This document shows, one piece after another, positions 1 through 3,000 of a stretch of DNA of 64,000 nt. The number at the start of each line of letters is the position of its first letter. The stretch's first letter is position 1. The stretch lies in the NCBI RefSeq assembly GCF_017348835.2, contig NZ_CP071375.1, one strand, 5' to 3'. The stretch is from Escherichia coli. Lineage in GTDB: Bacteria > Pseudomonadota > Gammaproteobacteria > Enterobacterales > Enterobacteriaceae. The position numbers were made by a program.

Positions 1-3000
1 CCGGAAAGCGGATCTGTTTGAGTATTATGAGGAATCAAGGTTGCTGATAGTTTTGACGTAAAACTAAGTAGATTGTGCATTGACTTATGATCAGTCAGGT
101 CCATCTTAGATAAGGCACGATGAACCTGAATGTATGGCATGTGGAGATTGATGGGTAAAGATTGTAATAACCTATTTTGTTCGTTTGACTCCAGGAGCAT
201 AAGAATCTTTTCATTATCTGGTGTGCGAATCTCGGCTTCAACAAGTTCGCTGTTAGTGACGGAAATTCTTAAGGATGAGCCATCTGCAAAATTAGCATAT
301 ATTCTGCCCAATTCATTAGGCGCGGGAGATACAGGTTCTAAAACGGTTAACAACTCTTGAAATGTTTGCCTTTCACTACGAGTATACGTTGGATTCCATA
401 AACCAAAACTAAGAACTTTTAGTAATTTTTCAGCGCATGACATATCATTCCACTGCTTTTTAAAATCAGAATTAATTCTAATTGCAGCATCTAAAACTAA
501 AGATGCGGAATTATTATTAAGTCCGTTTATCATGAGAGATTCCCCTGTCTCATTTATTATGAATGATTCGACAACAGATATCATATAGCATGATATAGTG
601 TCAATAATATATAAGCTATTTATAGCGAGAGTTTTAAATGTATAGAGAGTTATTTTTTTAAATTAGAGGAAATACTCCTCTAATGACGAACAATAGATTT
701 TCATTGATTCATCAGCAATAGTTTTTGTGCCTACGAAAAGGTTGTAATTATTTACATTAATAATAGCATTCAGAAAAAATTTTTATTGTGCTGATAAAAT
801 ATACCATTAGTGATTAGTTTAGATACCTGGCTTTCAGGCAACTTCTTTTTGTCTGTATATAAGGGATGATTACTAAGGTGGTACATTGATATCAGTTAGC
901 TTTCCCTTTTCGGGTTACTTTATCAAAGAGTCCTCTTTATAGAAGAGCGCATTGTGAGTTTTCCAGATTGACTTAAACGTGTGGCGGCATCACACCGATC
1001 AACACGATCTGCAGCAAAGGGCAGGTGTAACCAGGCCCATCTTAGCGCTATGCACTTTTGAGCCACTGAGCTTGCTAACCGTTTACCCGGCTTTCACTGA
1101 GCTAATTACGGCGATAATCTGATGCCCAGTAAAACGGACTTGATGTATGACGGGTCCTCTTTTGCGGGATAGATATGGGAATATTTCTTAATGCGAATGG
1201 TACGGTTATGCGGGGGGGACAAACATGGTTGCTTGTTCTGCCATTTGTTCCTTGTTCCTTTTTATACCGCCGCCGCTCCCGGTCAGCACTGGGGAATAGG
1301 GGGTTGAGGTATATCTGCTCCTTATGTCAGGGGAACAGGTAATAGCTATATAGCGGAACGTCTTAGTGCTGTAGTTATTCCATTTTGCTATTTGTCTAAT
1401 AGGACTAATCTTAAAGAAAACAAAACGATTAACTAAATGGAAAGGCAATTGTTAATGGCGTTTGCTAAAGAGATGAAATTCTTCTACTTTATTGATTTTG
1501 AATGATTTTTAAGAAATGTGATTTTTTTGTTGACATTTAATGATAATGTGTTTTACACATTATACATCGGTGATTAATAACTTTTATAAGGATTTTGTTT
1601 GATGAAGTAGATGTGTTCTAATTTGATAGATAAAACGTTATCTCACATAATTTATATCATTCGATTAATTGTTGATCCTTCCTGATAAGGATAAGATTGC
1701 TAATAGCTTAATATATTAAAGCATGCGGAGATTATTTATTATGAATATGGAAACTAATTCGCACACAACAAGCCCATACATTCAGCTTATTGAGCAAATT
1801 GAAGTGTTACAACAGGAAGCAAAGCGACTGCGAGAGCAGGAAATTCAAAGTGTAATTGAGTCGATTCAAAAGCAGATTACTTATTACAATATAACCCTAC
1901 AAGAGCTGGGATATACTAATGTGCCTGATGATGGCCTTGCTCGCCGGAACTCATCGAAAAGAGTTTATTATCGCAATGAAGAAGGGCAGACCTGGTCGGG
2001 AGTTGGCCGACAGCCACGCTGGCTTAAAGAAGCACTGTTGAATGGAATGAAGAAAGAAGATTTTCTTGTGAAGGACACCGAAGACGAAATAATACCGCTG
2101 AAAAATATTTAACATGAAATCATTAAATGATAACGATAACTGAACTGGAAGACGAAATAATAAAAAATAAAGAAGCCGCAAATATTTTCATTGAAAAAAT
2201 AAACGACAAAAAGAACGAAATCCATGAAAAAATGAAACACCCCTTGGATAAAGTTACCTACAATGAAGCAAAGGAACTGCTCATTGCCTGCGATGCGGCA
2301 ATCAGGATCATAGAGATAATGCTAATCAGAATTAATAATAAATAGAGGACGAGTATTGTGAGCCAAACAAAAAATAGAGAACTGTTAGATAAAAAAATAA
2401 GATCAGAAATTGAGGTGATAAAAAAAATAATCGCCGAATTTGATGTCGTAAAAGAAAACGTTAATGCTTTAAGTGAAAAAGCAAAAACAGATCCTCAGGC
2501 TGCAGAAAAATTAAACAAATTAATTGAGGGGTATACATATGGTGAAGAGCGAAAATTATATGATTCTGCCTTAAGTAAGATTGAAAAACTAATAGAGACA
2601 ATGAGTCCTCCAAGATCTAAAAACCAATCAACAAAAAATCAACGGAATAAAAATAATAGAAAAATAGTATGACGATTTTGAATAAAATAGACTATAACTA
2701 TTATAAATTAATTAATTATCCAATTATGATGGTCCATGATGAATGGCTAGGTGATTTAACCGGTGTCAATCAGGTTAGTTTTCGGCATTTAAGAGAAAGT
2801 AGTTCTACTCGTAATCAACTCAACAAGATATTGCGTCAGGAAATACAAGATAAAATTTCTGGAGTGGAATTATCTGATATAAATAAGGAAGGTTTTTTAT
2901 ATCAGTCAATTGGGAAAATAAGATTGCTTGCTCTAAGTAGTGCATTATTTGAAATTCAATGCCCTGACTATATTTTTTCACGATTATATCGAGAAACTCT

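Follow-up and report, generated by a model that had tools for sequence, protein, structure and literature searches.

An ERIC element (IRU, ~127 bp) is reportedly carried in the LEE of both EPEC E2348/69 and EHEC EDL933, as Elliott et al. and Perna et al. are said to have described in 1998, and it occupies the same espG-ler spacer that is the subject of the present analysis. The LEE analyzed here is of an O103:H2-like lineage and differs from those islands in being without ERIC. Full-text literature searches for an ERIC in this island gave only author names or papers on ERIC-PCR, the original LEE sequence papers being outside the search.

The second point of comparison is the IS3 family of insertion sequences. 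An intact relative of the sequence described below is found in E. coli EC361 (NZ_AP027417.1, about 3563106-3564352) as a ~1.25-kb element that PGAP names 'IS3 family transposase', with an annotated programmed frameshift and an A6G slippery run. Its fused protein scores 281 bits against NCBIfam transpos_IS3 (cutoff 160), its OrfA matches HTH_Tnp_1 (PF01527, 8.9e-27), its OrfB matches rve and rve_3, and 1,149 records contain this IS. Its OrfA may resemble the IS407 subgroup. What the spacer shares with this element is the terminal sequence TGT...CCCGCATAA and, at ~73% nucleotide identity, the leader together with the first 24-35 orfA codons, which include the RFTxHQIIAV motif of HTH_Tnp_1. It differs in that only IS nucleotides 1 to ~163-185 are kept, orfA having lost its start codon and acquired an in-frame stop, and in that orfB and the right end are missing; its parent is a different, unnamed member of the same IS group.

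The DNA examined, referred to throughout as the window, is a 64,000-nucleotide stretch of Escherichia coli sequence. Its LEE matches those of PE164 and E2865 (both E. coli) at 100% identity and those of O103:H2 strains at 99.8%. The initial annotation had described a GC-richer patch inside an AT-rich espG-ler gap, and such a patch is present: GC content is 0.477 across 900-1350 (451 nt) versus 0.280 across the remaining spacer (754 nt; two-proportion z = 6.9). The details cited in its description were likewise found, with the example string at 981-1036, the poly-G run near 1212 as seven consecutive G residues and the ERIC-like 17-mer cttgatgtatgacgggt correctly placed at 1139-1155. In coordinates of the LEE1 P1 start, the segment under study (900-1450) covers approximately -667 to -117. 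The LEE1 P1 hexamers are TTGACA at 1530-1535 (-35) and TACACA at 1554-1559, and this block is invariant in four of four aligned spacers. PGAP places no feature in the spacer under any of 30 sampled matches among 696 LEE-positive genomes, nor in the identical PE164. The features of the region are as follows.

531-533, minus strand: start codon of espG, the gene that covers the opening of the window.
534-1740: espG-ler intergenic spacer of ~1.2 kb, as also annotated in PE164 (100% identical).
900-1350: GC-richer core of the spacer.
1055-1225 (approximate, possibly from ~1040), minus strand: left-end fossil of an IS3-family element, delimited by blastn and nhmmer.
1077-1148, minus strand: pseudo-orfA codons 1-24, from tblastn, lacking the start codon and interrupted by an in-frame stop.
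1138-1155, plus strand: string first read as ERIC-like, identical to the right end of ERIC at 16/18 positions.
1206-1448, minus strand: 80-aa ORF with a TTG start, rejected as a gene.
1212-1218: G7 homopolymer within the terminal inverted repeat of the fossil.
1245-1260: TTGTTCC tandem repeat, 2.3 copies.
1293-1314: 22-bp indel, present in the window, SCPM7615, E. albertii and MOD1-EC7003 and absent from O157/O111/O145-type spacers.
1347-1353: unoccupied ERIC insertion site (TATATAG), from the alignment with Sakai after removal of its ERIC.
1741: ATG of ler.

Outside LEE islands, similarity to this region is restricted to a single part of it. When 900-1450 was searched by sensitive blastn against 5,426 complete E. 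coli genomes, only 1076-1214 had non-LEE matches, and these fell on the 5' ends of 'IS3 family transposase' genes and the DNA just outside them (71-74% identity); in plasmids and phages, the non-LEE blastn matches were again confined to the IS sub-segment. Intact IS3-family elements aligned by blastn over 139-144 nt with 73-74% identity (E = 9e-11 in a search of 28 Gb). An nhmmer profile built from six LEE spacers aligned to four IS copies with E = 5e-29, starting exactly at the IS terminal TGT and ending abruptly at IS nucleotide ~163. The left terminus of the IS is fixed because these four copies, each in a different genomic context, part from one another right after ...GCGGGATACTTACA / ...ATGCGGGATACTTACA. 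The terminal repeat starts 5'-TG, as in an IS3-family remnant, and E. albertii and SCPM7615 retain TGCAAATATCCCGCAT. Homology establishes ~1055-1225 as the fossilized left end of an IS3-family element.

What remains of the IS is its terminal inverted repeat, its leader and 24-35 codons from the start of orfA (IS nucleotides 1 to ~163, maybe 185), and the fossil is ~170 bp long, possibly up to 185 bp. Its outer terminus points toward ler, while its interior, truncated after orfA codon 24-35, points toward espG, and its GC content of 0.468 compares with 0.478 for the intact IS. In the window, the pseudo-orfA has 16 of 24 residues identical to the intact protein (IHQVRFTGHQIIAVISSVKAG*TV versus MRKARFTEHQIIAVIKSVEAGRTV; tblastn E = 3e-5 over the 64-kb window); the corresponding figures for Sakai are 15/25 by BLASTP and 15/28 by tblastn, and the orfA trace of the E. 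albertii/SCPM7615 lineage extends to codon 35. Pfam returned no match for the pseudo-OrfA fragments, which are too short, and tblastn detected no OrfB in the spacer. The orfB and right inverted repeat of a complete element are both absent, and the window element is therefore a fossil, unable to transpose. The G7 run falls in its terminal repeat, at a site that reads GGGATACTT in the intact IS, GGGAAGAG in Sakai and GGGATATTT in E. albertii/SCPM7615, and these differences mark the run as a lineage-specific substitution pattern.

The same fossil was recovered from the window lineage, O157 Sakai, O111:H8, SCPM-O-B-7615 (which has a divergent LEE) and E. albertii NBRC 107761, and in Escherichia sp. 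MOD1-EC7003 only its terminal ~28 nt are left. Given its presence in all six sampled LEE spacer types, E. albertii included, the fossil appears to predate their split and to be ancestral to the sampled LEE lineages. The proposal that the patch might be an embedded repeat was right in spirit, in that the DNA is compositionally foreign and holds an IS3-family fossil, and wrong as to ERIC.

That the segment contains an ERIC remnant around 1140 was assessed with a 126-nt ERIC consensus derived from three verified copies and with a 44-nt ERIC core, which was validated by its occurrence at ≥80% coverage in 5,425 of 5,426 E. coli genomes (median of 10 sites per genome). The sole ERIC similarity in the window is that of ERIC nucleotides 106-123 to 1138-1155 (16/18). 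Shuffling the 551-bp region 1,000 times produced a match of this quality once, which speaks for a remnant, as does the fact that the espG-ler spacer is a proven target of ERIC insertion in other LEE lineages. The 64-kb window holds no second such match, and chance alone would give ~0.1 across its whole length, which makes the match borderline. Against a remnant, neither of the two 22-mers of the ERIC core is found in the window even when 3 mismatches are allowed, and the similarity stops at the 18-mer, with none on either side. The region has no core and no second arm and is not palindromic; the central inverted repeat, most of the ~127-bp consensus and an insertion relative to an empty allele, by which an ERIC is recognized, are all missing at 1138-1155. 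The string is instead collinear with IS nucleotides ~70-90, at the orfA start region of the fossil, and adds no length. The equivalent positions in Sakai and O111 are less ERIC-like (13/17 by manual count), and the genuine ERIC site lies ~200 bp downstream and is empty here. Since ERIC similarity does not flank the 18-mer and the string follows the fossil at the orfA start without added length, we judge it, from its alignment, to be a chance resemblance inside the IS fossil. An ERIC remnant at ~1140 was rejected as very improbable, and of the ERIC reading there stands a 16/18 match at one ERIC end and nothing more.

Comparison of the spacer among LEE lineages revealed three ERIC states, empty, full and short, at this genuine site. 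Sakai, once its 126-nt ERIC is removed, aligns collinearly with the window across 1347-1353; the TA repeats leave the precise point of insertion ambiguous. This collinearity across TATATAG identifies the empty allele in the window, IAL7252, SCPM7615 and E. albertii. Six sampled spacers, from O157, O145, O111:H8 and related EPEC strains, contain a full ERIC (94.4% over 126 nt, nucleotides 1-126), namely those of O157:H7 Sakai, O145:H28 RM13514, E110019, FHI_NMBU_03, 24AR0142 and O111:H8, and Escherichia sp. MOD1-EC7003 carries, at the site of the full ERIC, an internally deleted one of ~55 bp that retains both ends only. The ERIC-bearing junction occurs in 457 complete E. coli genomes, and ~235 have a spacer with ≥90% identity to the empty-site version of the window. 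A 43-bp 'mini-element' at the ERIC site in a first MAFFT alignment was an artefact of the 22-bp indel, which resembles the adjoining sequence; upon realignment with ERIC removed, the site is simply empty and no mini-element remains.

The same allelic differences bear on whether the 80-aa ORF at 1206-1448 encodes a small protein. As the initial annotation had noted, the frame exists, stays open for 80 codons and has no recognizable family, in that Pfam yields no match. It relies on a TTG start and begins inside the terminal repeat of the IS fossil, PGAP is silent about it in the identical PE164 and under the sampled matches, and in other lineages it is interrupted, split by ERIC in 457 genomes and shifted out of frame elsewhere by the 22-bp and smaller indels. 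We rejected the ORF as a gene and regard a protein product as very improbable.

More substantial is the question of whether the GC-rich core acts as a distal regulatory element or small RNA on LEE1 or espG, which we consider decidedly unlikely. Its position upstream of the LEE1 P1 start, at a distance of 117-667 bp, and its sharp GC/AT contrast with the surrounding DNA would suit such a role, for instance as a GC-rich break that stops H-NS/Ler from spreading from one AT-rich promoter region to the other. The fossil has also been kept in every sampled spacer type, and its survival since before the lineages diverged could mean mild constraint as opposed to mere neutrality. A terminator-like hairpin is present on the plus strand at 1136-1157, but it is not conserved in Sakai, and both terminator-like and promoter-like sites occur at the counts expected from shuffles. 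The plus-strand fold of 1226-1360 is weakly favorable (z = -1.5), yet none of six sub-segments folds with unusual stability relative to shuffles (z-scores of -1.5 to +1.0). No Rfam family matches the segment, the best hits (mir-202, mir-4662 and STnc450) reaching 16-20 bits versus gathering scores of 37-97. The known LEE sRNAs map elsewhere according to reviews, with sRNA350 being the cesF 3' UTR and Arl antisense to ler, and the LEE1 promoters in the literature lie close to ler.

Further evidence against a regulatory role comes from divergence. Aligned with Sakai, the window is 72-83% identical in the core, 87% in the proximal LEE1 region, 90% in espG and 94% in ler; on this measure, the core is diverging faster than ler, espG and the LEE1 promoter. 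In other lineages, the core has moreover received insertions of 127 bp, 22 bp and kilobase scale. The regulatory or small-RNA alternative raised by the initial annotation gained no support from Rfam, folding, the promoter and terminator scans or the positions of known sRNAs.

Larger insertions were encountered in two of the compared lineages. In O111:H8 strain 2009C-3675, in whose LEE espG is not adjacent to ler, a frameshifted IS2 with a truncated N-terminus is preceded by IS1203 (L010 137-1285), and the IS2 end (...GGGGCAAATCCA) directly abuts the spacer at the equivalent of window position ~1016. In MOD1-EC7003 (L018 1-380), the right end of an IS3-like element lies inside the old IS fossil, at the equivalent of window position ~1197.

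Several shorter repeats accompany the core. The 33-nt stretches 536-568 and 1475-1507 form a direct repeat (73% identity); the first is immediately upstream of the espG start codon, the second of the LEE1 -35 hexamer, and the similarity may be due to chance in AT-rich DNA. An 18-nt inverted repeat of 78% identity, TTCCATTT...AAATGGAA (1378-1395 / 1425-1442), lies ~125-190 bp upstream of the LEE1 start, is partly conserved in Sakai and gives rise to weak, symmetrical 'mir-4662' matches on both strands. The TTGTTCC heptamer is variable in copy number, with one extra copy in IAL7252, the spacer of which is 99% identical.

At the other side of the island, the sole tRNA gene in the window is tRNA-Phe (GAA) at 41538-41613 on the minus strand, consistent with a LEE integrated at the phe-tRNA locus and not at selC. 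Searches by tblastn with IS proteins located an IS3-family OrfB-like frame at 39130-39807 (E = 6e-10) and OrfA-like stretches at 38720-38881 and 36405-36500, and these transposase-like frames in 36400-39810 suggest intact or decaying IS elements near the far end of the island.

Taken as a whole, the GC-richer core is, with good confidence, degenerate mobile-element debris that has no detectable function of its own. Such an origin is demonstrated for only part of it: 900-1040 and 1226-1350, which make up ~60% of the core, had matches in LEE copies only (sensitive blastn of E. coli genomes, plasmids and phages), do not match the remainder of the IS on either strand and contain ORFs that lack a Pfam match. 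An ancient IS3-family scar would form the center of the core and would have served as a landing pad for further mobile elements. Import with or by the IS would account for the high GC content of the patch, and the two flanks, GC-rich and without a homologue outside the LEE, may have arrived in the same event or events. On present comparisons, the core is most likely passive, weakly constrained spacer DNA, which would separate the AT-rich espG promoter side from the LEE1 regulatory region and tolerate insertions and indels.

The orientation of the fossil might also mark the junction of the espG-rorf1 module with the LEE core. That the fossil is the seam joining the two, and that the patch may bound the H-NS/Ler-bound AT-rich regions of espG and LEE1, is a speculation that we consider unlikely. 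Should it be true, the lineage-specific states of the patch, namely the empty site seen here, the full ERIC of 457 genomes, the short ERIC and the IS2 or IS3-like insertions, would entail different coupling or spacing of LEE1 regulation.

The immediate consequence of debris in this position is a corrected annotation, an IS3-family fossil in place of a supposed ERIC, and this has little import for mechanism. ERIC in the LEE is already known, and the IS fossil is an ordinary, new instance of a very familiar feature. Caution is warranted when coordinates expressed as 'bp upstream of ler' are carried between EHEC O157 and O103-type islands, the spacers of which differ by more than 100 bp. For the LEE as a family, the three easily scored ERIC states, together with the shared ancestral IS scar, could mark the history of its lineages.
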